Source: Burkholderiales bacterium (lineage in GTDB: Bacteria > Pseudomonadota > Gammaproteobacteria > Burkholderiales > SG8-41). From it: a DNA stretch of 64,000 nucleotides. The DNA lies in contig JAIEPF010000016.1 in assembly GCA_019749945.1 (NCBI GenBank), forward strand, positions 13,596-77,595. Direction: 5' to 3'. Below the pieces are notes generated by a model, which was not told the origin of the DNA, made no database searches, and saw only the letters and a list, made by a program, of their open reading frames with translations. The position numbers and the translations under genes were made by a program. Positions 1,849 through 58,222 of this stretch are shown piece by piece; the stretch's first letter is position 1, and each line of letters starts with the position of its first letter.

Positions 1849-2094
1849 GAAAAACTTCCTTATTAACAAGTATTTATGGTTGCGGACGGGCTTGTCCGAC
1901 ACCGGCATTGTGCTGGCCGGGCGCGTTTTCCACTTGAATGAAAGGGCTGACTTGCGGCGGGAAGGATGCAGCGCGTGAGCACCGCGCAGATTCGTGCGCC
2001 AGCCGCGGCGAAGCCCGTGCGCATCGCCGCACTCAAGATCGGCGTCGGGCGCGTCTGCATGTGACAGGGTGGCAGCCTGTGGATCGGGCGCGAG

Positions 2095-2802
2095 GTGGGG
2101 CGCGCGCAGCCCCACGCCCACCACGGCATACAGATCTCTCTGTCGCTGGATGGACCCGCCGGAAAACTCCTGCTGCGCAGTGGCACAGATGGCGAGTGGC
2201 CTGCTTTCAGGGCGGCCATCGTCAGGCCCAACCGCCGGCATGCGTTCGACGGCCTGGGCGGTTCCGTCGCCCAACTCTTTGTCGAGCCCGAAACCGTGCG
2301 GGGCCGCAGCCTGCTCAAGCGCTATGCGGTGGAGGACATCACCGCATTGCCGCTGGAAATGATTGAACCCGCATTAAACCGGCTGGCGAAGCGGTATGCG
2401 AAGGGCGGTGACATTCAGGCGCTGGTCGCGATCAGCCAGGGCATTGTCGACACGCTGGCCGGTGCGGAGCGCGCGCAACCTTCCGCGAATCCGCGCATCG
2501 CGGCGGCGATCGAATTCATCTCGCAGCACATGACCTCAACCCTCACGCTGCAGCAGGTGGCGGCCGCGGTGCATCTGTCACCCAGCCGACTGCGGCACCT
2601 CTTCGTGCAGGAAACGGGGACCACCTATCGTGGCTATGTGCTGTGGCTGCGCATCAACCGTGCAGTGGTGGCCATGATGGATGGCCGCAGCTGGACCGAG
2701 GCGGCCCATGAAACCGGATTTGCCGATTCGGCGCATCTCAGCCGGACGTTTCGGCGGATGTTTGGCATTTCGCCGGCGATGTTGATCAAGGAGAAGCGGT
2801 AG
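2095..2802 (+). CDS. AraC family transcriptional regulator
   Basis: C-terminal double HTH region (LTLQQVAAAVHLSPSRLRHLF ... FADSAHLSRTFRRMFGISP). The start codon is uncertain. Confidence 0.8.
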   Translation: MGRAQPHAHHGIQISLSLDGPAGKLLLRSGTDGEWPAFRAAIVRPNRRHAFDGLGGSVAQLFVEPETVRGRSLLKRYAVEDITALPLEMIEPALNRLAKRYAKGGDIQALVAISQGIVDTLAGAERAQPSANPRIAAAIEFISQHMTSTLTLQQVAAAVHLSPSRLRHLFVQETGTTYRGYVLWLRINRAVVAMMDGRSWTEAAHETGFADSAHLSRTFRRMFGISPAMLIKEKR

Positions 2803-5345
2803 GTAATCTCAATAAATCGACCCGGTAACGAAGGTTTTTCTCGGGCTCTCTTCGGATAGGATCTTGTCATTCGAGATGAGTGAATCGAACAAGAGGGAGT
2901 GAAAAAAGGATTAGGAACTTTTGGTTTTGTTGGCCCTATTTATATCTAGGTGCTGCAAATTGTTTTGGCGATAGCCAAGAGTTCACCTGGTATTTTTTCC
3001 CTTGTCACGGATAATTGTTTGATGAGAGAATTTTGTAGCGGTATTGAATTCGAGATCCCAAACCGCTTGGCACACATTGCAAGAAGTTCCTTGCCGGGAA
3101 AGAGTTGAAGCCATTGGTCAGAGTTCAACGCGCCCGCCACTTGCTTTTCCGCTGCATTAAGAACTTCATTAATGGCCGATTCAGACAAGGTTGTTTGAAA
3201 TTCAGCATGTATGCGTTGTGTGGACTCAAGGAGTTTAGTGCGCAGTATCTCTTGATGCTGAGTGACAGGAGTAACGCTACCGATAGTAAAGTACGACTCC
3301 GAAGTAAGTATTCTCCCAAGTGAAAAGTCTTGCGGTCTAACGGTCAAGTTGAGTCGGAACGCGACCATATCTCTGATAACGCTAGACGAGAGCTTATACG
3401 CATTCTCAAGAAAAATAGATTTTAATTCGACGGGAGTTTTTTGGAGCTGAAAAACTTCGGCAAGTACTTTTTGAATAAGCTCGAAATCAAGTAGATAGTT
3501 TTCAAGTTCGTGGCTTGACAGTACAAATATCCGTCCTGATGGGTGGGAACGATAACTATTGACCATTTCCTCAGTTAGATAATCCCGATCGCGTATAAGA
3601 GAAAATCTCATCCAGCCAAAATTGGCCTCCAAGATTGAGAGTATTGCCGCGTTAATACGATTCAGGGCGCCACTTGCTGTTGCGGGAATAAGTTTGACGG
3701 CCGCGTCGTCTTCTGAAAAAACGCTAGAAAAAAGTTTTCTGTCTTGACTGGTATTTTCGCCCTCTAAAAAGACAAGATTTTTGGCGACGCCGATGTATCC
3801 GGAGAAGCCAAATAAGTTTCTTAGTTCAGCTAGCGCCTCATTTTCATCGGTTGCTGCGATAAGTTTTGATTTCCGAGTCGCGGCGTCACGTGCTAGGTAA
3901 AGAACTTTGTCTCGTCCCGCCTCATCAATTATTTCGGCATTGTGTGTGGCCACCCATATCTGGTTTCCTGCCTTGATGGCTTTGATGTTTTGAATAAGTA
4001 GTCTTGACAATTCCGGGTGCAAATGAAGCTCGGGCTCATCGATAACAATAATTGCATTTTCGACGTTGTGACGAATAAAAAATGAAAGGATAAAAAATAC
4101 TTCTTTCTCTCCGGACGACAGATCGTTGAAAGTGATGACTTCCCCGGAGGGGATTTGAATAAACAAGTTCGAAGGAACTGGTTCATCGGGATTTGAAAAT
4201 TTGTATTCAGGAAAGAGTCTACTCAATAACTTTTCGTACGGAACAAGTGGGTCTTCAGGTTTTTGATTGACGGCGGCACCTTTGTTAATGGCGTCGTGAT
4301 ATGCGCCTAGTGCACGCAAATAATGGTAACGTTGCTGCACTAAAAACTCATACATTTCTCGATACTGAATGTCGCTGGTATTAAATGCCATCGACCACAA
4401 ATGCTCTTTGCGGCTAACGGTTTCAAATTCAAAAATTTTGTTGCGATCGAAAGATCGTTGAGGGTAGTTTCGATCTGCACGTAAAAAGAAACCTAAGGAG
4501 CGTTTAAGAATGTCTTTTAACTCTCGGGTGGCATACGAATGTAAATGGTTGTGTAAAGATTGGTCTTTTTGATATTCACCTTCAGTGTAGTTAAAGGCGC
4601 GATAGTAAATATTGCTCCGTCCTAGATACTCAAGCATTTGAAGGTGATGTTTGTATCCCCTGTTGTATTCTTCGGTTAACGCTTGGGTTCTTGCGGACTT
4701 TTGTTCAGGTGTGAAATCAGATTGCGCTACTACCCCCAATATTTTTTCATTGAGCAGTTTTTTGGGCTCCGATAGTTCATGATTTAGTTTGTCTCGAATG
4801 ATTGAGCATTCCTCCAACGTTAGTCCAATTCCAACCTCAAACGAAAAGCTTTCAAATGTTCTACCTAAACTCCAGTTCAGGCTGTAAGAGTTTGATAGCG
4901 CGTAACTGATGAGTTCTAGAACCGAGCTCTTTCCGCTGCCATTTGGACCGGCGAAGGCAATTAGATCAGAGAATTTTCCGAATAGATGTAAGGGGCCAAT
5001 AAACTCATTTTCTAAATGGCGAAACTTTTTTATTGAAACTGAGCTGATATACATTGGTGCGGCTCCTCATTTCCTATTTAAGCGTTTCCGAGGTAGTGAT
5101 GGGTCATATGTTTGTTGCATCAAAAGCAATATTTCGAACTAAGAATGGATGCGTGAGTTTGATGGCTACTTTCGTCAATAAAAAATTAGGGACCCAGTGT
5201 TTGTGCGGCCAGTTACATTTATAACAACTTAAATCCCTTTTTCAGCAGCTTGTTTGCACTTGAAATTCTCTCTCCTTGTTGTTCAATCCACGGCTTATCA
5301 AGGTCTAATGATGCGATTGCATCTGAGCTACGGCACCGAGATTCC
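2803..5345. mobile_element. AT-rich genomic islet (probable horizontal acquisition; no recombinase gene present)
   Basis: Composition changes abruptly from GC-rich to AT-rich immediately after the AraC stop. It returns to GC-rich at the duplicated lyase 3' segment near 5350. Confidence 0.55.
2946..5054 (-). CDS. ABC/AAA-type ATPase fused to a DUF4435/TOPRIM-like nuclease domain (OLD / PARIS AriA-AriB-like defence candidate)
   Basis: 702 aa. Walker A GPNGSGKS (aa 36-43), ABC signature LSSGE (312-316), Walker B IIVIDEPE (335-342), H-loop THN (370-372). These are followed by FLEGENTSQD (429-438), IRDRDY (487-492) and HELENY (515-520), which resemble TOPRIM/DUF4435 acidic motifs. Confidence 0.8.
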   Translation of the reverse strand: MYISSVSIKKFRHLENEFIGPLHLFGKFSDLIAFAGPNGSGKSSVLELISYALSNSYSLNWSLGRTFESFSFEVGIGLTLEECSIIRDKLNHELSEPKKLLNEKILGVVAQSDFTPEQKSARTQALTEEYNRGYKHHLQMLEYLGRSNIYYRAFNYTEGEYQKDQSLHNHLHSYATRELKDILKRSLGFFLRADRNYPQRSFDRNKIFEFETVSRKEHLWSMAFNTSDIQYREMYEFLVQQRYHYLRALGAYHDAINKGAAVNQKPEDPLVPYEKLLSRLFPEYKFSNPDEPVPSNLFIQIPSGEVITFNDLSSGEKEVFFILSFFIRHNVENAIIVIDEPELHLHPELSRLLIQNIKAIKAGNQIWVATHNAEIIDEAGRDKVLYLARDAATRKSKLIAATDENEALAELRNLFGFSGYIGVAKNLVFLEGENTSQDRKLFSSVFSEDDAAVKLIPATASGALNRINAAILSILEANFGWMRFSLIRDRDYLTEEMVNSYRSHPSGRIFVLSSHELENYLLDFELIQKVLAEVFQLQKTPVELKSIFLENAYKLSSSVIRDMVAFRLNLTVRPQDFSLGRILTSESYFTIGSVTPVTQHQEILRTKLLESTQRIHAEFQTTLSESAINEVLNAAEKQVAGALNSDQWLQLFPGKELLAMCAKRFGISNSIPLQNSLIKQLSVTREKIPGELLAIAKTICST

Positions 5346-28005: not shown

Positions 28006-29205
28006 ATGGCGGTGAGCAGCGAGCGATTTTATTCCGCATTGCCTGTGATCACCGACTTCGAGGCGATCACGCTTGCGGAGAGTTATGCGGCATTGCCCGA
28101 CGACTGGCATGTCGCGTTGTGCGACGTGCGCAATTCCACCGCCGCGGTCACCGAAGGCAAATACCGCAACGTCAATTCGATCGGCGCCGCAGCGATCACC
28201 GCGATCATCAATGCCGCCGGTGAGGTCGAGGTGCCGTTCAGTTTCGAGGGGGACGGCAGCCTGGTGTGCGTACCGCAGCAGTTGCTGGAGGTTACCCGCG
28301 CTGCACTGGCAAAGACACAGCAGGTCGCACGCGATGCCTTCGGCCTTGATCTGCGCATCGCGACGGTGCCGGTGACGGCTATTCGCGCCGCTGGGTTTTC
28401 GGTGCGGGTGGCGCGTTACCGCGTTTCCGAGAACTATATACAGGCGGTGTTTTCCGGCGGCGGTGTTGCCTGCGCCGACAGCCTGATCAAGGACCCGGCC
28501 ACCGAGGCGATATATGCCATCGCGCCTGGCAGCGTGGAGCCGCGCGGCAGCTTCGACGGTTTCGAGTGCCGCTGGGAGGATATACCCAGCCGCCACGGTG
28601 AGACGGTGAGCCTGATGGTGCTGGCGCTGCATTACGAACCCGAGCGTGCGGCGGCGGTGTACCGCGAGGTGATCCGCAAGGTGCGCGAAATTTACGGTGA
28701 CGAGGATGCCTGTCATCCGGTGTCGGTGCCGCAGCTGGCGATGACGCTGAAGTCGGATTTGCTTGCCGACGAACTGGGCGTGCGCACCGGCAAGGCTGGG
28801 GGATTTGACCGCTGGCGGCGGCTGATGAAAACGCGCGGGATCGTGCTGCTGGGCAGAGCGCTGATGCATTTCGGCATGCAAACCGAGGAAACCGACTGGA
28901 GTCAGTACAAGGCGACGCTGGCGCGCAACTCCGACGTGCGCAAATTCTCCGATGTCTACCGGCAGATTCTCGCCGGTAACGAGGCGCAGCGGCTGGCGCT
29001 TGATGCCTGGCTGCAGCAGCAGTTCAAGCGGCGCCAGTTGTTGTACGGTCTTCACGTCACTGATCGCGCCCACATGACCTGCCTGGTGTTCGATTATTCC
29101 GGCCGCCATCTGCATTTCATCGACGGCGCCGACGGCGGGCTGTTTCTCGCGGCCAAGGCGTTCAAGGACCGGGCGAACCAGTACGTCAGCCGTACCGGAG
29201 TCTAG
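28006..29205 (+). CDS. DUF3095-like protein (possible nucleotidyl-cyclase-type fold)
   Basis: 399 aa. The N-terminal pattern FYSALPVITDF...W.VALCDVRNSTAAV..GKYRNVN..GAA.I.A..N....E.PF.FEGDG recalls DUF3095 as I remember it. Confidence 0.65.
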   Translation: MAVSSERFYSALPVITDFEAITLAESYAALPDDWHVALCDVRNSTAAVTEGKYRNVNSIGAAAITAIINAAGEVEVPFSFEGDGSLVCVPQQLLEVTRAALAKTQQVARDAFGLDLRIATVPVTAIRAAGFSVRVARYRVSENYIQAVFSGGGVACADSLIKDPATEAIYAIAPGSVEPRGSFDGFECRWEDIPSRHGETVSLMVLALHYEPERAAAVYREVIRKVREIYGDEDACHPVSVPQLAMTLKSDLLADELGVRTGKAGGFDRWRRLMKTRGIVLLGRALMHFGMQTEETDWSQYKATLARNSDVRKFSDVYRQILAGNEAQRLALDAWLQQQFKRRQLLYGLHVTDRAHMTCLVFDYSGRHLHFIDGADGGLFLAAKAFKDRANQYVSRTGV

Positions 29206-29351
29206 AACAGAGAACAACATAACCTGTTGTTATTAAAAGATATTTTATTCTATACCGTCGGACACCAGTTTTGCTTTCATCGGGGCTGGCGTGTATTGTC
29301 ATTTTCATGACGATCCGGACGCCGATCCGACGCCACCAGGGAGAGAGAACC

Positions 29352-30317
29352 ATGACGCATCATTTGCCGAAGCTGCTGTTTGCAGTTGCCGCAGTGGTTT
29401 CGTTGCAGGTCACGGCACAGGATTACCCGACACGCTCGATCCGGGTGGTGGTGCCGTTTCCGCCGGGCGGCGCCGGCGACACTCTGGCGCGGCTGATTGC
29501 GCCGCCGGTTTCAAAAGCGCTGGGCCAGAACATGGTGATCGAAAGCCGCACCGGCGCCAACACCGTGATCGCCACCGAGGTCGTGGCGCGCGCGCCGGCC
29601 GACGGCCATACCCTGCTGGTGATGGCGACGAGTTTCACGGTGAATCCGTTCGCCTATTCAAAACTGCCTTATGACACGCTGCGCGATTTTCACGGCGTGA
29701 CGCGGATGGTCTATAACCCGCTGATTTTCTGTACGCATCCGTCACTGCCGGTGAAAACCATGAAGGAACTTGTGGCGCTGGCGAAGGCGCGGCCCGGCGA
29801 GCTGACCTGGGCCGTGTCGAGCATCATCGGCGGCGGCCGCATTGCCGGGGAGCTGTTCAAGGAGATCGCGAAAATCGACATGATCAACGTGCCCTATGGC
29901 GGCGGCGCGCCGGCGGCGACCGCAGTCCTCGGCGGTCACACCAGCATGATCGTCGGCAATGTGCTCGAGTGCGTGCCGCACGTATTGTCGGGCAAGTTGC
30001 GCGGCATCGCGGTGACCTCGGCGCAACGCGCCGAGATTCTGCCGAACGTGCCGACCGTGGATGAATCGGGGTGGCCGGGTTTTGAGTCACTGAACTGGTT
30101 CGGCATCGTGGTCCGCGCCGGCACGCCGCGGCCGATCATCGAGCGCTTGTCAGGAGAAATCGGCAAGTCGCTGCAGACACCGGAGGCGCGCACGGTGCTG
30201 ATGAAGCAGGGTTTTACCGCAGGCACAATGACGCCCGCAGACTACGACGCCTACATCCGCAACGAGATGCAGCGCAACGAGAAAATCCTGAAAAAACTGA
30301 ACCTGAAGCTCGATTAG
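29352..30317 (+). CDS. Bug family substrate-binding protein
   Basis: Signal peptide, then QDYPTRSIRVVVPFPPGGAGD. Start chosen at the ATG after GGGAGAGAG. Confidence 0.85.
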   Translation: MTHHLPKLLFAVAAVVSLQVTAQDYPTRSIRVVVPFPPGGAGDTLARLIAPPVSKALGQNMVIESRTGANTVIATEVVARAPADGHTLLVMATSFTVNPFAYSKLPYDTLRDFHGVTRMVYNPLIFCTHPSLPVKTMKELVALAKARPGELTWAVSSIIGGGRIAGELFKEIAKIDMINVPYGGGAPAATAVLGGHTSMIVGNVLECVPHVLSGKLRGIAVTSAQRAEILPNVPTVDESGWPGFESLNWFGIVVRAGTPRPIIERLSGEIGKSLQTPEARTVLMKQGFTAGTMTPADYDAYIRNEMQRNEKILKKLNLKLD

Positions 30318-30380
30318 CCCGGAAATAAAAGCAGAAATGCGGCAGCGGTGCGGCCCGACCGGGCGGCACCATGCATCAGG

Positions 30381-30956
30381 TCAGCGCATTTTTTCCAGCA
30401 CTTCGAGCAGTTCATCGTTGGGCATGATGCCGCGGGGATCTTCAACCTTGGCGTAGCGGATGACCCCCTCCCTGTCGATGATGAACCATGAGCGTTTCGC
30501 GCGCAGGTAGCCGGCGATGCGCTTGGCATCATTGGCCATTGCCGGATTGTCGTTGAGCACGCCGTAATCACGGGTCATTATCCGGCGCGTGTCACTCAGC
30601 AACGGGAACTTCAGGCCGAGTTTTTCGGCGAACACCGTATTGGCGGCGTTGAAATCGACACTGATGCCCAGAACCTGGGCATTGGCGGCCTCGAACTTGG
30701 GGAGATCAAGCTGGAAGGCCACGATTTCGGTCGTTCAGGTGTCGGTGAAGGCGCCGATATAGAAGAACAGCACCACGTTTTTCTTGCCGAGATAATCGGC
30801 AAGCGCCACCGGTTTGCCGGTGGATGAGATGACCGAAAAGGCGGGGGCCTTGTCGCCAACCTTCAGGGTCTGCGCCTGGGCAGTCCCGGCGAACAGCGCA
30901 GCGCTTCCCAGCAAACCCGCCGCGATCCAGCGTTGCAACAACGACATCCGGGACAT
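30381..30956 (-). CDS. Exported peroxiredoxin (AhpC/TSA-Bcp type) with an in-frame TGA at the peroxidatic position; candidate selenoprotein
   Basis: ORFs 30735-31058 and 30381-30722 are in the same frame and separated only by TGA (30735-30737). The readthrough gives VVLFFYIGAFTDT-U-TTEIVAF, matching the Prx motif FTxxCxxE. Signal peptide present; AGGAGG before ATG 30956. No other Cys after the signal peptide. Confidence 0.7.
30687..30720 (-). other. Candidate SECIS-like hairpin for the Prx-like gene (weak)
   Basis: Interrupted 12-bp hairpin GGCCUUccAGCUUG-AUCUCCC-CAAGUUcGAGGCC starting 14 nt after the UGA. The loop lacks G. A tighter hairpin AUGCCCAG-GUU-CUGGGCAU lies further downstream (~52 nt). 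Confidence 0.25.
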
Positions 30957-30981
30957 GGAGCACCTCCTGTGGTGGTGAAAA

Positions 30982-31512
30982 TCATTGTTTGGCGAGTTTG
31001 CGCGCGTAATTGCGCAGCACCTGGCCGTCAAAATCGACGTGGCCCAGGCCGCGCGCATTGATCATGCCCTTTTTGTCGACGATCACGGTGGACGGCACGC
31101 CGCGTACGCCGAAGCCGCGCGCAACATCCATGTTCTGATCAAGCAGTGCGGGCAGGGAATAGCCGCCCTTGGCGAACACCGGTTTGACCGCGGCCTCGCC
31201 GGTGCCGTCGATGGAAATGGTGATGACGTTGATGCCGTCTTTTTTCAGCTCGTCATGTGCCCTCTGCACGGAGGGCATTTCGCGGACGCAGCTACTTCAC
31301 CAGGAGGCCCAGAAGCGGATCACCGTGACCTTGTTGCGCAGGTCGGCATCGCTGCCGCTGGTGCCGTTGAGCCCCGGAAGCTTGAACACCGGCATGGGAA
31401 CCGGTGGTGAAACCGGCGCCAGCGTATCGCCGAGCGCAGGTTGTGCCAGTACGAAGCCGAACATGCAGCACGCGGCAATCAGGGATTTGAGGCTTGTCGT
31501 TGTCAGGGGCAT
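30982..31512 (-). CDS. TlpA/ResA-like thioredoxin-fold thiol:disulfide oxidoreductase with an in-frame TGA in a UxxC motif; candidate selenoprotein
   Basis: ORFs 31297-31545 and 30982-31278 are in the same frame and separated only by TGA (31297-31299). The readthrough gives VIRFWASW-U-SSCVREMP, matching FWAxWCxxCxxEMP. Hydrophobic N-terminal leader. Start is ATG 31512 (GGGAG upstream) or 31545. Confidence 0.7.
31258..31277 (-). other. Candidate bacterial SECIS hairpin for the TlpA-like gene
   Basis: The mRNA segment UGCCCUC-CGUGCA-GAGGGCA forms a 7-bp perfect stem with a G-containing 6-nt loop. It starts 19 nt downstream of the UGA. Confidence 0.4.
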
Positions 31513-31665
31513 GGGAACTCCCGTAATTAACAGCGTGGTTAACATCTGTCCCGGGGATTCTAATCCGAATGACGCCTTGGCGAAGGTTTACGATGCGGCC
31601 CGTTCGTTGGTTGTCATGGACAGGGCCCCGGCGGTCGCATGCGCGCGACGCCTGGGTAATCCAGA

Positions 31666-32628
31666 TTACTGCGGTTCGATGCCCGCAGCCTTGGCGATAT
31701 CAGCGAAACGTTTGACGTCAGCGCGGAACTGCTTGGCCCAGACTTCCGGCGGATCGCCGTTGGGCTCGTAGCCGTTGTCGATGAAGTGGGCATGGATCTT
31801 CGGCTCCTGCAGCGCCTTGTGGATGGCCTGCTGCAGTTTCCTGGCGACGGGCATCGGCATTTTGGCTGGACCGAACACGCCGTGCCAGCCGGCATCGGCC
31901 ACGTAACCGTTGACCGTTTCGCCGACGGTCGGGATTTCCGGCAGCGAGGCCAGACGCTTGGCGCCGGTGAAGGCGATGGCGCGGACGCGACCGGCCTTGT
32001 GTTGCGGCACACCGACCGAACCCGCGGGGAAATGCACCTGCACTTCACCGCCGGCAACGGCGGCGACGGCCGGGCCGCCGCCCTTGTAGGGCACATGCAG
32101 CATGTCGATTTTGGCCATGGTGTTGAGCAGCGCGCCCGCCAGATGCTGGCCGTTGCCGACCCCAGCGGTGCTGTAGCGCAAGGGCTGTTTTTTTGCGGCC
32201 TCAATAAGTTCGGCGGTGTTTTTGACCGGCAGCTTGGGATTGACGACGACCAGATAACCCAGGCCGGTGGCGACATTGGTGACCGGCAGGAAGTCGCGAA
32301 CCACATCAAACGGCATTTTTTTCATGATCGCCGGATTCACCGCAAAACCGAACGAAGTGTTCATGATGGTGTAACCGTCGGGGTTGGCATTCTTGACGGT
32401 GTCCGCGCCGACGATGCCGTTGGCGCCGCCACGGTTGTCGATGACGAAAGTCGCACCGAGTTCGGTTTCAACCTGTTTGAACAGCACGCGGGAGAACACG
32501 TCGACGTTGCCGCCGGCGGGGAAAGGCACGATCAGCCGGATCGGCCGGTTCGGGTATTGCTGGGCGATGCAATGGCCCGCCAGTGAGAGCGCAAGCAGGC
32601 CGAGCATAATGGAAATACTGCGCTGCAT
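31666..32628 (-). CDS. Bug family substrate-binding protein
   Basis: Signal peptide, then QQYPNRPIRLIVPFPAGGNVD. GGAGGAG before ATG 32628. Confidence 0.85.
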   Translation of the reverse strand: MQRSISIMLGLLALSLAGHCIAQQYPNRPIRLIVPFPAGGNVDVFSRVLFKQVETELGATFVIDNRGGANGIVGADTVKNANPDGYTIMNTSFGFAVNPAIMKKMPFDVVRDFLPVTNVATGLGYLVVVNPKLPVKNTAELIEAAKKQPLRYSTAGVGNGQHLAGALLNTMAKIDMLHVPYKGGGPAVAAVAGGEVQVHFPAGSVGVPQHKAGRVRAIAFTGAKRLASLPEIPTVGETVNGYVADAGWHGVFGPAKMPMPVARKLQQAIHKALQEPKIHAHFIDNGYEPNGDPPEVWAKQFRADVKRFADIAKAAGIEPQ

Positions 32629-32813
32629 GATGTCTCCTCCGATGTTTTTGAACATGGATGCCGGGTGCGCGGATTTTTGGCTGCGCTTCGTTTGCTGCGT
32701 CACCGACAGGTTCATTTTAGTGGTACCGGCGGTCATGCAGGAAATAAGTTGGGCCGGGCCGGAATCGGGTAATCTGCGCGGCAATCAATGATTGCAGGCA
32801 AAGGGAGTGGAAT

Positions 32814-33893: not shown

Positions 33894-34682
33894 ATGGCTG
33901 CAGACAGGATACTTGCCGGCAAGGAAGGCCCGATCGGCTTCCTGATTTTCAACAACCCCGAGCGCCGCAACGCGGTGTCGCTGGAAATGTGGCAGCGTGC
34001 CGGAGAGGTGCTCACGGAATTTGCCGGCGATGACGGCGTAAGGGTAATCGTGCTGACCGGCGCGGGCGACAAATCCTTCGTCTCCGGCGCGGACATTTCG
34101 AGATTTGAAAGTGAGCGCGCCAATGCGGAGGCGCAGGAAAAATACACCAAGACCTCCTCGGGCATGCGCAAAATACTGCGCGAGGTCGGCAAACCTACCA
34201 TCGCGATGATCCGCGGCTATTGCATCGGCGGCGGCATGTCGCTGGCCTTGAGCTGCGACATGCGCATCTGCTCCGACGACGCCCAGTTCGGCATCCCGGC
34301 GGCGCGCCTCGGCATCGGTTACGGCATCGAAGGCCTGGGCCGGCTGGTGGAACTGGTCGGCCCTTCGGCAGCCAAGGAATTCATCTACACGGCGCGCCGC
34401 TACAATGCCGACGAGGCGCTGCGCATGGGTATCGTCAATCGGGTGTTTCCGGCGCAGGCGCTGGGTGCCGCGGTGCGCGAAATGGCGAACGGCATGGCGG
34501 ACAACGCGCCGCTGTCGATCCTGACCGCAAAACGCGTGGTCGATGAACTGATGAAAGACCCAGCCAAGCGTAATGTCGCGTTGTGCGAACAGTTGGTCAA
34601 GGATTGTGGCGCGAGCGAAGATTTCATCGAAGGCCGCCGCGCGTTCATGGAAAAACGCAAACCGGTGTTCAAGGGGCGCTGA
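33894..34682 (+). CDS. Enoyl-CoA hydratase/isomerase family protein
   Basis: Crotonase motifs (FNNPERRNA, VLTGAGDKSFVSGADI, GYCIGGG). The start is uncertain (33825, 33849 or 33894). Confidence 0.8.
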   Translation: MAADRILAGKEGPIGFLIFNNPERRNAVSLEMWQRAGEVLTEFAGDDGVRVIVLTGAGDKSFVSGADISRFESERANAEAQEKYTKTSSGMRKILREVGKPTIAMIRGYCIGGGMSLALSCDMRICSDDAQFGIPAARLGIGYGIEGLGRLVELVGPSAAKEFIYTARRYNADEALRMGIVNRVFPAQALGAAVREMANGMADNAPLSILTAKRVVDELMKDPAKRNVALCEQLVKDCGASEDFIEGRRAFMEKRKPVFKGR

Positions 34683-34684
34683 TA

Positions 34685-35686
34685 ATGAAGCAACGCAATT
34701 CCGCGTGGTACCGATTCGGCAGGGTTACCGCCGCAGTGTTGTTTGCGGCATGGAGCGGCGCGTCCGTTGCGGCTGACGCAACCAGCGGTTATCCCAATCG
34801 CCCGGTGCGCTTCATCGTCGCCCAGGCTGCGGGCGGTAACGCCGACTTTGTCGCGCGCATGGTTGCTGCCGAGCTGGTAAAAAAACTGGGGCAGCAGTTC
34901 GTGGTTGACAATCGCTCCGGTGGCGGTGGTGGCGTGCTCGCTGCCGACATGGTGGCCAAGGCCAACCCGGATGGCTATACGATGCTGCTCGTCGGCAGTT
35001 CCTTTGGCGTCAATCCCAGCATCTACAAAAAACTGCCTTACGACTCGGAGCGTGATCTTGCACCGATTACGCTGGCGTCCACCGCATCGCAGATCCTGGT
35101 GGTCAACCCCTCCTTGCCGGTGAACACCGTGCAGGACCTGATCAAACTCGCCCAGGCCAGGCCTGGTGAACTGAATTTCGGTTCTTCGGGCAATGGCGGC
35201 GGCCCGCATCTGGCGGGGGAACTCTTTAACCTGATGGCGAAGACGAAGATGACCCACATTCCGTACAAGGGTGCTTCGGGTTCCATTCTTGATCTGCTGT
35301 CCGGACGGATCCAGGTGGTGTTCGCCACCATGCCTTCGGTGATGTCGCACATCCGGTCGAACAAACTGCGCGGTGTCGCGGTGACCAGTCTCGAACGCTC
35401 GGCGCTGGTGCCGGAGCTGCCGACGATTTCCGAGGCAGGGTTGAAGGGATTCCAGTCGGGCACCTGGCAGGGAATATTTGTGCCGCGCGGTACGCCCGAG
35501 CCGATCATCAAACTGCTCAACCGCGAAATCGTTGCTGTCGTGAAATTGCCAGAGGTGCGCAAACGTTTCGAGCTGGAGGGCGGTGTGCCGGTGGGCAATA
35601 CGCCGCATGAATTTGCCGTATGGCTGCACGCGGAAATCGCGAAATGGGCGAAAGTGGTCAAGGCGGCGAACATCACGCTGGAATAG
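34685..35686 (+). CDS. Bug family substrate-binding protein
   Basis: Signal peptide, then SGYPNRPVRFIVAQAAGGNAD. The ATG lies 2 nt after the upstream stop. Confidence 0.85.
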   Translation: MKQRNSAWYRFGRVTAAVLFAAWSGASVAADATSGYPNRPVRFIVAQAAGGNADFVARMVAAELVKKLGQQFVVDNRSGGGGGVLAADMVAKANPDGYTMLLVGSSFGVNPSIYKKLPYDSERDLAPITLASTASQILVVNPSLPVNTVQDLIKLAQARPGELNFGSSGNGGGPHLAGELFNLMAKTKMTHIPYKGASGSILDLLSGRIQVVFATMPSVMSHIRSNKLRGVAVTSLERSALVPELPTISEAGLKGFQSGTWQGIFVPRGTPEPIIKLLNREIVAVVKLPEVRKRFELEGGVPVGNTPHEFAVWLHAEIAKWAKVVKAANITLE

Positions 35687-55092: not shown

Positions 55093-56064
55093 ATGCCGCA
55101 CGTCATACGCATACATCAGAACGGTGGTCCGGAGCAGATGCGCTGGGAGGAAATCACTGTCGGTGATCCCGGCCCCGGTGAAGTCCGCGTCCGCAACACC
55201 GCGATCGGGCTCAATTACATCGATACCTATCATCGTTCCGGCCTCTATCCGATGCCCTTGCCGCTGGTGCTGGGCTCCGAGGGCGCGGGCGTGGTCGAAG
55301 CGGTCGGGCCGAAGGTCAGGGAGTTCAAGGTCGGTGACCGCGTCGCCTACGCGCAGCCGATCGGGGCTTATGCCGAAGTGCTGATCCGTCCGGTGGCGCG
55401 GCTGGTGAAAATTCCCGCCGGCATCAAGGATGAAACGGCGGCGGCGATGATGCTGAAGGGCATGACCGCCTGGTATCTGTGCCGGCGCACTTACCGCGTG
55501 AAAAAGGGCGACACCATCGTTGTCCATGCCGCGGCGGGCGGCGTCGGCCAGATCCTCTGCCAGTGGGCGAAACACCTGGGCGCCACCGTGATCGGCACCG
55601 TCGGCAGCGACGAAAAAGTCGCGCTCGCCAAAAAAGCCGGCTGCAAACATGTGGTGGTGATGTCGCGTGAAAAACTGTCCGAACGCGTCAAGGCGATCAC
55701 CAAGGGTCGCGGCGTGCCGGTGGTGTACGACGGCATCGGCAAGGACACCTTCGTCGAATCGCTGGACTGCCTGGCGCCGCTGGGTCTGATGGCGAGTTTC
55801 GGCAACGCTTCGGGTGCCGTGGCGCCGGTCAACATCGGCATACTCGCGCAGAAGGGTTCGCTGTTCCTGACGCGGCCGACGCTGGGCAATTACACGGCGA
55901 CGCGCGAAGACCTGCTCGCCGCAACCCGCGAGCTGTTTGCCGTGGTCAAAAAGGGCGCGGTGAAGATCACCATCAACCAGCGTTATCCGCTGCGCGAAGC
56001 GGCGCAGGCGCATCGCGATCTTGAGGCGCGCAAGACCACCGGTTCCACGGTGCTGCTGCCCTAG
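55093..56064 (+). CDS. NADPH:quinone oxidoreductase (zinc-type ADH superfamily)
   Basis: 323 aa with GLNYIDTYHRSGLYP and the AAGGVG nucleotide-binding motif. Confidence 0.85.
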   Translation: MPHVIRIHQNGGPEQMRWEEITVGDPGPGEVRVRNTAIGLNYIDTYHRSGLYPMPLPLVLGSEGAGVVEAVGPKVREFKVGDRVAYAQPIGAYAEVLIRPVARLVKIPAGIKDETAAAMMLKGMTAWYLCRRTYRVKKGDTIVVHAAAGGVGQILCQWAKHLGATVIGTVGSDEKVALAKKAGCKHVVVMSREKLSERVKAITKGRGVPVVYDGIGKDTFVESLDCLAPLGLMASFGNASGAVAPVNIGILAQKGSLFLTRPTLGNYTATREDLLAATRELFAVVKKGAVKITINQRYPLREAAQAHRDLEARKTTGSTVLLP

Positions 56065-56119
56065 GTCCTCTCAACAGGCCCGAATCCCCTTCACACGGGC
56101 GCAGCGGTATGATGGCCGC

Positions 56120-58222
56120 ATGCTTGAACATGCGCCCGCCCCAGCCCAAAACGCAATCGCCGCGGCGCCCGCGGCTGACAGTGATGCTGTCAACCGGCTG
56201 GCGCTGCGGCTGATTGCCGCCAATGCGCGGGTTAATGCCATCGCGCTGGTGGTGGCATTCAGCCTGATTGCGCTCGGCGCCTGGGCTTACTCCGGCATTG
56301 AGCAGTCGCTGCGCGACCTGCGTGCGGCGGGACTTGCCGCGGTGCTCGATGCCGAAGTGCAGGCCCTGGGTTTGTGGATAGAAGACCGCAAAGACGAAGT
56401 CCGGCATTGGGCCGCCGATCCGCGCATCCGTGCCGCCACCGTGGCGCTGTCCACCCGCGCCGCGCCGGAAAAGGCCCGCGCCAATCTCGCGGCGGCGCTG
56501 GCACCGGCACTCAAGGAATCGGGTGCCGCGGCCTACAACGTCATCGACCGGCAGGGTGTGGTCATGGCCTCATCGGCGACCGAGTATTTCGGCCGCCGCA
56601 TCAGTCCCGGCGAGTATCTGGCGGCCGTGCGTGATGTGCTCGGCGGATCCACGCGTTTTGTCCGTCCCTATCGCGAACGTGATCGCATCGAGGGTGAACC
56701 CAGTGCGGTATTTGCGCGGCCGATGGTCTGGTTCAAGAGCCCGGTTTTTGATGCGAATGGCGAAGCCGTTGCCGGCCTCGGTTTTGCGCGTTATGCCGAC
56801 AGCCGGTTCACCGGAATACTCGGTGCGGCGAGCCCGGGCGTCACCGGCGAGATTTATGCGCTGACCGCGGATGGCCTGATGTTGTCGGACAGCCGTTACG
56901 CGACTGAACTGCGCGCGGCCGGCGCCTTGCCGCCAGCCGCCGGCAACGGCGCGCTGCAGGTGCAGATCCGCGATCCCGGCGGGGCGTTTGCCAAAGGCCA
57001 CAAGCTGCCGGCCGACTGGGCGGCTGCGCCGCTGACGCGGCTGGCGGCGCTGGCCGGGGCGGCCCGCGGCAAAACGGATCCGGCGGAACAGCGCGGGGTG
57101 ATCCTGGAACCCTATCGCAATTATCGCGGCAGCGAAGTGATCGGCGCCTGGCGCTGGCTCGCCGATTACGACTTTGCGGTGGCCGTCGAAATGTCGCGCG
57201 ACGAGGCTTACGCGCCGCTGCGTTATCTCAATTTCGCCTTTGGCCTGCTCGGCGCCCTGGTCGGCCTCGCGGTCCTCGCGGTGCTGGGCTCGATGTGGAA
57301 TGTGCGCCGGCTGCGTCTGGCCGCGGGCGACGCCCGCGTTATCGGCCAGTACCAGCTGGAGCGGCAGCTCGGCGAAGGTGCGATGGGTACGGTTTATCTC
57401 GCGCGGCATGCCCTGCTCAAACGGCCGACCGCGATCAAACTGCTGAAACCCCATCTGGCCACCGACGAGATGATCGGACGGTTCGAGCGCGAGGCGCGCC
57501 TGGCCAGCCAGCTGGTACATCCGAACACGATCAGCATTTACGACTACGGACGCACGCCGGAAGGCGTTTTTTATTATGTGATGGAGTATCTGGAAGGACA
57601 GTCTCTTGACGAGATCGTGCTTGCCTGGGGACCGCTGCCGGTGGCGCGGGTGATCCACGTCTTGCGCCAGACCTGCGCTGCGCTGCGCGAGGCGCATGGC
57701 CGCGGCCTGATTCATCGCGATATCAAGCCGCATAACCTGATGCTGTGCCAGCGTGGCGGCGAATTTGATGTGGTCAAGATACTCGATTTCGGCCTGGTCA
57801 AGGATCTGACAACGCCGCAATCGCGCAACATCACCCAGTTTCAGCGCGTCGTCGGCACCCCGGTGTACATGGCGCCGGAACGCGTGCGCAACCCAGCCGA
57901 CGCGGATAACCGCTCCGACATCTATGCGGTCGGCGCGACGGCATTTCACCTGCTGACCGGCCGGCCGCCGTACGAAGCTGCCGGAGAACATGACCTCACT
58001 TACCAGATCCTGCATGCGCCAGTGCCGGCAATCGGCGATTTCGCGCCGCAGCTGCCGCCGCGCCTCGGCGAACTGATCACGCGCTGCCTGGCCAAGGAAC
58101 GCGGCGAACGCCCGCACGACATCGTGGTCATACTGGCGGCGCTGGAGGCGCTGGCCATCGTACATCCGTGGACGCAACGCGAAGCTGCTGCATGGTGGGC
58201 CGGGATCCGTGCGGCGTCGTGA
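56120..58222 (+). CDS. Receptor-type Hanks Ser/Thr protein kinase with an N-terminal periplasmic Cache-like sensor
   Basis: TM1, then ~290-aa extracytoplasmic region, then TM2, then the kinase domain: GEGAMGTVY, AIK, HRDIKPHN, DFG, GTPVYMAPE. Confidence 0.85.
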   Translation: MLEHAPAPAQNAIAAAPAADSDAVNRLALRLIAANARVNAIALVVAFSLIALGAWAYSGIEQSLRDLRAAGLAAVLDAEVQALGLWIEDRKDEVRHWAADPRIRAATVALSTRAAPEKARANLAAALAPALKESGAAAYNVIDRQGVVMASSATEYFGRRISPGEYLAAVRDVLGGSTRFVRPYRERDRIEGEPSAVFARPMVWFKSPVFDANGEAVAGLGFARYADSRFTGILGAASPGVTGEIYALTADGLMLSDSRYATELRAAGALPPAAGNGALQVQIRDPGGAFAKGHKLPADWAAAPLTRLAALAGAARGKTDPAEQRGVILEPYRNYRGSEVIGAWRWLADYDFAVAVEMSRDEAYAPLRYLNFAFGLLGALVGLAVLAVLGSMWNVRRLRLAAGDARVIGQYQLERQLGEGAMGTVYLARHALLKRPTAIKLLKPHLATDEMIGRFEREARLASQLVHPNTISIYDYGRTPEGVFYYVMEYLEGQSLDEIVLAWGPLPVARVIHVLRQTCAALREAHGRGLIHRDIKPHNLMLCQRGGEFDVVKILDFGLVKDLTTPQSRNITQFQRVVGTPVYMAPERVRNPADADNRSDIYAVGATAFHLLTGRPPYEAAGEHDLTYQILHAPVPAIGDFAPQLPPRLGELITRCLAKERGERPHDIVVILAALEALAIVHPWTQREAAAWWAGIRAAS

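Follow-up and report, generated by a model that had tools for sequence, protein, structure and literature searches.

Is a thioredoxin-like gene that a stop codon appears to break in a Burkholderiales genome really broken? The gene lies in a 64,000-nucleotide (nt) stretch of DNA from a Burkholderiales bacterium (GenBank assembly GCA_019749945.1, contig JAIEPF010000016.1, positions 13,596 to 77,595), the whole of which we call the window. On the minus strand two open reading frames (ORFs), 31545..31297 and 31278..30982, lie in a single frame, and a TGA at 31299-31297 is their sole separator. An initial annotation, made from the letters alone, had described this split and proposed that the TGA stands for selenocysteine (Sec, U) in a candidate selenoprotein; the split is confirmed in the sequence, and the proposal is now supported by a TGA that is kept among relatives, a downstream hairpin that covaries and a frame under purifying selection. 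Read through, the gene gives ...KVTVIRFWASW-U-SSCVREMPSVQ..., a TlpA-like protein, and the gene directly downstream, for a peroxiredoxin, is interrupted in the same way. We conclude that the apparently broken gene is almost certainly intact, with UGA as selenocysteine, and that the locus is very probably a two-gene operon encoding two exported selenoproteins, the UGA being decoded via SelB and tRNA-Sec with the help of a hairpin.

The TlpA-like gene occupies 30982..31512 on the minus strand, 176 codons including Sec. Direct reading of the sequence places its likely start at the ATG at 31512, which GGGAG precedes by 5 nt, and its true stop is a TGA at 30984-30982. In a Pfam search run with Cys substituted for U, the protein matches AhpC-TSA (76 bits), Redoxin (69 bits) and Thioredoxin_8, all above their cut-offs. 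Among solved structures the nearest is 3kcm (E = 8.8e-25), whose Cys aligns to U, followed in the PDB by ResA (4nmu), StoA and TlpA (1jfu). By these nearest structures the protein resembles TlpA/ResA/DsbE-type periplasmic thioredoxins; U, encoded at 31297..31299, takes the place of the first Cys of W-C-x-x-C, and the match to the TlpA/ResA active site that the initial annotation had seen in W-U-S-S-C holds. It falls below the NCBIfam cut-offs for ResA (74 vs 170 bits), rhizobial TlpA (52 vs 230), DsbE (52 vs 123) and the WAxxUGC selenoprotein (72 vs 300); judged by its sequence, it belongs to the superfamily only and to no named NCBIfam equivalog tested. The Cys of UxxC is the only Cys in 68 of 69 family members. 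The N-terminus, MPLTTTSLKSLIAACCMFGFVLAQPALG, resembles a signal peptide when judged by eye. We also considered a lipoprotein reading of this N-terminus, based on an IAAC motif, and rejected it because the hydrophobic stretch runs beyond the Cys and that Cys is absent in relatives.

That the neighbouring gene shows the same anomaly had been noticed at the outset, and it does so at its peroxidatic Cys. The peroxiredoxin gene (30381..30956, minus strand) starts 25 nt past the stop of the TlpA-like gene, with a GGAGG ribosome-binding site 6 nt before its ATG, and carries an in-frame TGA at 30737-30735 (30735..30737 on the minus strand) in the context FFYIGAFTDT-U-TTE. The product scores 114 bits against Pfam AhpC-TSA (cut-off 26) and aligns to PDB 2ywn with E = 1.9e-24, U falling on the peroxidatic Cys; its nearest kin are archaeal BCP-type enzymes and Mycobacterium AhpE, which makes it an AhpC-TSA protein of BCP/PrxQ-like type. 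It carries T-D-T-U, an instance of the T-x-x-U motif, and the conserved Arg, ...AKRSWFIID aligning to AKRAVFVID of 2ywn. Its scores lie below the NCBIfam cut-offs for PrxU (NF040737, 54.8 vs 270 bits) and Prx-SUH (NF045827, 33.7 vs 298 bits), and like the TlpA-like protein it qualifies for no NCBIfam equivalog. By eye, it has a signal peptide of secretory (Sec-type) look with the cleavage motif ...AQA/Q, and the mature protein is without any Cys in 63 of 64 family members.

The comparison with relatives drew on metagenome contigs (10 loci) and on one scan of species-representative genomes (68 loci), the latter all metagenome-assembled genomes (MAGs) of uncultured Betaproteobacteria/Burkholderiales, at 35-86% protein identity. 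The TlpA-like codon is TGA in 68/68 genome loci and in 10/10 metagenome loci, in keeping with the earlier judgement that a chance nonsense mutation at this residue is unlikely; an initial regular-expression scan had found TGA in 77 of 77 sequences, L050 being added afterwards. The peroxiredoxin codon is likewise TGA in all 71 sequences that span the site. No further stop interrupts the frame for about 103-113 codons past the TGA in the TlpA-like gene and for 115-117 codons in the peroxiredoxin gene. The ratio of nonsynonymous to synonymous differences (pN/pS), calculated from uncorrected values with pS near saturation, is 0.53 upstream vs 0.52 downstream of the UGA in the former and 0.39 vs 0.36 in the latter; the further decay that might follow a stop in relatives, which had been named as evidence to look for against the selenoprotein reading, was not seen. 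Genuine stops of the TlpA-like genes are mixed (TAA 28, TGA 26, TAG 23) and the internal stop is invariably TGA. The first in-frame ATG, GTG or TTG after the UGA varies in position, from 1 to 10 codons downstream in the TlpA-like gene and from 4 to 53 in the peroxiredoxin gene. The genetic code is standard: window genes including dnaG and rpoD end in TGA and are without internal stops, which rules out a reassignment of TGA. In L077, a nanopore-derived MAG, both genes carry frameshifts (1489-2667) and the TGA is retained; the frameshifts are probably sequencing error and not decay.

The gene order is kept as well as the codons. In 64 of the 68 genome loci the peroxiredoxin gene immediately follows the TlpA-like gene, and in three of the other four the contig ends too early; the wider neighbourhoods of the pair are variable among loci. 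The operon is conserved in about 68 uncultured Burkholderiales species. One locus stands apart: at L067:10433-10958, the 526 nt past the TlpA-like gene hold no peroxiredoxin and no long ORF, the only case of this kind.

Protein databases record these genes largely as pieces. A word-indexed search of 5.8 billion proteins returned TlpA-like homologues that are all C-terminal fragments of 102-122 amino acids (51-85% identity), nearly all of which begin directly after the U position; the best match to the window protein in that set is 85% identical. When 1.84 billion representatives were searched exhaustively with HMMER, the picture was similar, 11 of the 12 best TlpA-like cluster representatives being fragments of ~100 amino acids. 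Six full-length peroxiredoxin entries from the Joint Genome Institute (JGI; P0286-P0289, P0305, P0371) have W at the Sec position (FTGTWTQE), where the TGA was evidently translated as Trp via another code on short contigs; these genes are thus mis-annotated in a second way, next to being split. An NCBI entry from a 7.5-kb contig, P0011, is a chimeric ORF of 122 amino acids in which TlpA-like ...GHVDF is fused to peroxiredoxin ...NAANIAFAERLGLKFPLL, which points to a deletion or misassembly between both genes at a shared VDF motif.

Is there an RNA signal that could direct Sec insertion? In the TlpA-like gene a hairpin, UGCCCUC-CGUGCA-GAGGGCA (31258..31277, minus strand), has a perfect stem of 7 base pairs (bp) and a 6-nt loop containing GU. 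It begins 19 nt after the UGA, as the initial annotation had it, and its loop begins 26 nt after the UGA. This geometry, with G second in the loop, fits the bacterial consensus for the selenocysteine insertion sequence (SECIS). From the UGA onward, a 65-nt segment has a folding energy of -21.1 kcal/mol (z = -2.45), which 3 of 200 shuffles match. Among 61 distinct sequences 99.5% of stem cells are paired, and compensatory changes occur at pair 27:38 (CG 38, UA 21, UG 2) and pair 28:37 (UA 59, GC 2). None of 500 shuffles reaches the observed covariation and every slid register collapses, with phylogenetic relatedness only partly removed from these statistics. In the alignment, distinct sub-groups of the family show the same switches of stem pairs, suggesting that these arose more than once. 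The loop, CGUGCA, does not vary at all, even at synonymous sites. The hairpin encodes part of M-P-S-V-Q-R-A and, the covarying one aside, every third codon position of M-P-S-V-Q-R is 100% conserved, compared with ~50-65% elsewhere in the gene. Because the loop is invariant and these third positions are conserved, we regard the conserved peptide MPSVQRAH as largely the footprint of an RNA element. In a scan for further genes with an in-frame TGA followed by a UGCCC...GGGCA hairpin, the TlpA-like and peroxiredoxin genes were the only ones recovered, and Rfam gave no SECIS match at the gathering threshold or at E <= 10.

The peroxiredoxin gene has two conserved hairpins after its UGA. Hairpin 1 (30685..30722, minus strand) consists of a lower stem GUGGCCUU/GAGGCCGC, an upper stem AGCUUG/CAAGUU and the loop AUCUCCC, and its apical loop lies ~29-35 nt after the UGA, the canonical SECIS distance. 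Pairing holds in 89.7% of its cells, and in three pairs both partners have changed, for example 21:48 (CG 34, UA 7); in the most distant group (alignment A3) the lower stem is shifted in register by one nucleotide. Hairpin 2, AUGCCCAG-GUU-CUGGGCAU (30664..30682, minus strand), has 8 bp and a GUN loop and begins 52 nt after the UGA. It is paired in 99.8% of cells, with pair 57:73 as CG 28, UA 25 and UG 4 and no C:A, pair 58:72 as GC 52 and AU 5, and pair 63:67 as GC 56 and AU 1. The 83-nt segment with both hairpins has a folding energy of -33 kcal/mol (z = -3.45), which 0 of 200 shuffles match, and both are present in its minimum-free-energy fold; here too the covariation beats 500 of 500 shuffles and slid registers. 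A view of hairpin 2 as a sequence homologue of the TlpA-like hairpin was rejected, as only a GCCC/GGGC core is common across the family. Simple bacterial SECIS rules fit neither peroxiredoxin hairpin cleanly. The two may form a composite SECIS, in which a conserved spacer, hairpin 1, brings a SelB-binding hairpin 2 with its GUN loop to the ribosome. Current bacterial SECIS models seek a single hairpin about 16-37 nt from the UGA and would, if this is true, miss such an element. The two independently covarying hairpins are a concrete case on which to ask whether the rules for bacterial SECIS elements are drawn too tightly.

Homologues with Cys at these positions were found and serve as natural controls. 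In the closest full-length TlpA-like homologue, P0143, which is 47% identical, the motif is FWATWCGFC and the DNA has a broken hairpin. A closer control is the Logan contig L083 from SRR31724235, which at 1976-3247 carries the same gene pair with TGC (Cys) in both genes. Compared with the Sec-form locus L007, its two proteins show 69% and 73% identity. L007 and the window are further apart than this, which nests the Cys pair inside the Sec family. The MPSVQRAH segment, invariant elsewhere, has the sequence MDAVQRVH in L083, peroxiredoxin hairpin 2 is broken there by C:A and G:G mismatches, and neither RNA segment has more structure than its shuffles (z = -0.15 and +0.31), against z = -2.1 to -3.45 in the Sec forms. 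A joint switch of both genes from Sec to Cys is what would be expected if both rely on the host's Sec machinery as a single shared trait.

Several observations weigh against the reading of the locus as a selenoprotein operon, or against its details. Every carrier is an uncultured MAG or a metagenome contig. ARAGORN found no tRNA-Sec in the 64-kb window or in 60 related loci (only tRNA-Met and tRNA-Gly), and tblastn with E. coli SelA, SelB and SelD gave no match in the window and 1.07 Mb of related loci. Where the SECIS would lie, the L083 TlpA-like gene still has a perfect 7-bp hairpin, of another sequence (UGGACGC...GCGUCCA), which we treat as chance, 78 of 200 shuffles being as stable. The SECIS of the peroxiredoxin is ambiguous, since the loop of hairpin 1 is without G or GU and hairpin 2 starts 52 nt away. 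The conserved Pro of PxxxTxxC is missing from the peroxiredoxin, which has Ile, Val or Thr instead (FYIGAFTDTU in the window vs FYPAAFTQVC in 2ywn, Ile being the family majority residue); the Cys-form orthologue P0333/L083 has the Pro (FYPGAFTNAC), and the change from Pro to Ile seems to travel together with that from Cys to Sec. Finally, the proposed partnership and periplasmic location draw only on adjacency, signal-peptide-like N-termini and analogy.

With respect to the machinery, Pfam searches of the ten largest window ORFs gave dnaG, rpoD, tsaD, DctM and others, and no sel genes. A SelB search seeded with Burkholderia cenocepacia returned 120 entries, all from Burkholderia or Paraburkholderia, none of which could be traced to the lineage of the MAGs. 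Because Betaproteobacteria often decode Sec (PMC1794560) and many Burkholderia and Paraburkholderia have SelB, a Sec trait is plausible for the host; the carrier genomes presumably hold selA, selB, selC and selD.

What could two such proteins do together? By analogy with Caulobacter TlpA-PprX, the gene pair is probably an exported selenium-based peroxide-reducing relay. We infer a scheme in which decoding depends on SelB, both proteins are exported, the second is an active peroxidase and the first is its partner. In each mRNA the in-frame UGA would be decoded as Sec by bacterial SelB and tRNA-Sec, directed by the downstream hairpin in the coding sequence. The first gene would yield a TlpA/ResA-like thiol-disulfide reductase with the active site U-S-S-C, the second a BCP/PrxQ-like peroxiredoxin in which the Sec of T-D-T-U would be the sole redox-active residue, and both proteins would reach the periplasm via Sec-type signal peptides. 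There the selenolate of the peroxiredoxin would reduce H2O2 or an organic hydroperoxide and become a selenenic acid, which the Sec of the TlpA-like protein would attack to form a transient intermolecular Se-Se bond. The Cys of UxxC would then resolve this bond into an intramolecular Se-S bond, and a membrane electron transporter of DsbD/ScsB/CcdA type would re-reduce the TlpA-like protein. The full proposal, an all-selenium envelope redox relay with intermolecular diselenide recycling together with a composite peroxiredoxin SECIS, is tentative, and we think it unlikely to hold in every part.

Among the alternatives, the one that survives best accepts both selenoproteins and denies that they form a peroxidase-reductase couple, each having another envelope client, substrate or reductant. 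TlpA-family proteins have several known clients (PMC3322552), with copper-chaperone and cytochrome maturation roles as candidates here; the peroxiredoxin is without the conserved Pro, and the neighbourhoods viewed hold no DsbD- or ScsB-type gene. This explanation is possible, and we consider it unlikely, in view of the adjacency of the genes (64 of 68 loci, with contigs ending too early in three of the other four) amid otherwise variable neighbourhoods and of their joint switch from Sec to Cys in L083. A mature peroxiredoxin without a resolving Cys, moreover, needs an external reductant, for which the fixed TlpA-like neighbour is the obvious candidate.

Could the UGA be recoded to a residue other than Sec? 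Cys-recoding systems with a selC-like tRNA-Cys and a SelB-like factor exist, and such a system would likewise need a hairpin and a conserved UGA; Trp could be inserted by near-cognate read-through. However, a plain TGC would give Cys, as it does in L083, and so costly a device would hardly be kept in 68 species, while Trp at the catalytic nucleophile would kill both enzymes. Sec forms of both families are well documented (PMC1088965, PMC13188914). We regard non-Sec recoding as very improbable. Even less credit is due to a truly split gene, in which translation stops at the UGA and restarts, and two polypeptides assemble into one thioredoxin fold. The window does have an ATG 7 codons past the UGA (MPSVQ...), but some TlpA-like variants have CTG at that place and the position of the restart codon is not conserved in either gene (1-10 and 4-53 codons). 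The C-terminal piece would also be without a signal peptide and without the catalytic nucleophile, and two unrelated genes would both need splitting at the catalytic residue. That both genes are pseudogenes or bear chance nonsense mutations, yielding only truncated non-functional products, agrees with their treatment as split ORFs by gene callers and with the failure to find Sec machinery nearby, but the chance of it is negligible and the comparative data effectively refute it, the TGA being identical in all 68 species-level genomes, the frames open with selection equally purifying downstream, the true stops variable where the internal stop never is, and both genes hit exactly at the catalytic residue.

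Taken as two exported selenoproteins, how does the pair relate to known systems? Both genes belong to known selenoprotein kinds that are routinely split by gene callers. TlpA-family (cd02966) or thiol-disulfide isomerase-like UxxC selenoproteins were first predicted in the Sargasso Sea metagenome (PMC1088965), and UxxC TlpA-type proteins and TxxU peroxiredoxins are both catalogued (PMC1088965; Table 1 of PMC13188914). The TlpA-like protein shares with the UxxC TlpA-family selenoproteins the thioredoxin fold (TlpA/ResA/DsbE), Sec in place of the N-terminal Cys of CxxC, a hairpin after the UGA and widespread Cys homologues. Unlike the marine examples, the present family occurs in Burkholderiales of freshwater, soil and groundwater, and unlike the catalogued UxxC proteins it is fixed beside a Sec-peroxiredoxin. 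The peroxiredoxin resembles PrxU and Prx-SUH in its AhpC-TSA fold, in Sec at the peroxidatic position of T-x-x-U and in the conserved Arg; it differs from them in its predicted export, in a mature form without Cys, in Ile or Val for Pro and in the two conserved hairpins after the UGA. Known selenoprotein operons pair Prx with a SelW-like protein or a Prx-like with an AhpD-like protein (PMC13188914). Our literature search found no report of this gene pair or of thioredoxin-fold selenoproteins in Burkholderiales.

The Caulobacter pathway of envelope peroxide reduction, ScsB -> TlpA -> PprX, is experimentally established (PMC3322552). It too combines an exported TlpA-like thioredoxin with an exported BCP/PrxQ-type peroxiredoxin, and electrons in our proposal would likewise flow from a membrane transporter to TlpA, the peroxiredoxin and peroxide. 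The Caulobacter proteins use Cys and their loci, CC2210 and CC1673, are far apart, whereas here Sec is in both proteins and the genes form one operon; the likeness to PprX and CcTlpA is one of analogy. At the RNA level the locus resembles bacterial SECIS elements in a hairpin that lies in the coding sequence soon after the UGA and has GU in its apical loop, which in the TlpA-like gene begins at a distance within the range for such elements. It differs in having no sequence similarity to them and no evident bulged U, and the two-hairpin arrangement of the peroxiredoxin misfits the simple model.

These genes are easily overlooked. Public databases hold hundreds of fragment entries for both, labelled hypothetical protein, redoxin-domain protein or AhpC, or giving W at the Sec codon. 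In a 2006 survey FdhA was the only betaproteobacterial selenoprotein family (PMC1794560), and the present pair adds two thioredoxin-fold families to the betaproteobacterial selenoproteome beyond FdhA. Two small exported Sec proteins, together with the Cys-Cys pair of L083, offer a test system for selenium vs sulfur in peroxide defence. Of these findings, the pairing of two Sec genes in one operon and the double hairpin deserve follow-up.

A promoter and terminator scan of 30200-31800 gave nothing useful. The operon is surrounded by ORFs resembling TctC/Bug-type periplasmic binding proteins, at window positions 29271-30317, 31666-32784 and 34583-35686, and the genes in L001 that are syntenic with them match Pfam TctC. 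A gene for a DUF3095 protein occupies 28006-29205, and synteny with MAGs of the L001 type reaches as far as genes for a 2-hydroxyacid dehydrogenase and an enoyl-CoA hydratase. Further away, and unrelated to the selenoprotein genes, the window encodes a 702-amino-acid AAA_15/AAA_21 (AbiEii-like) ATPase at 2946-5054 on the minus strand and a 733-amino-acid protein with a C-terminal Ser/Thr kinase domain at 56021-58222 on the plus strand.

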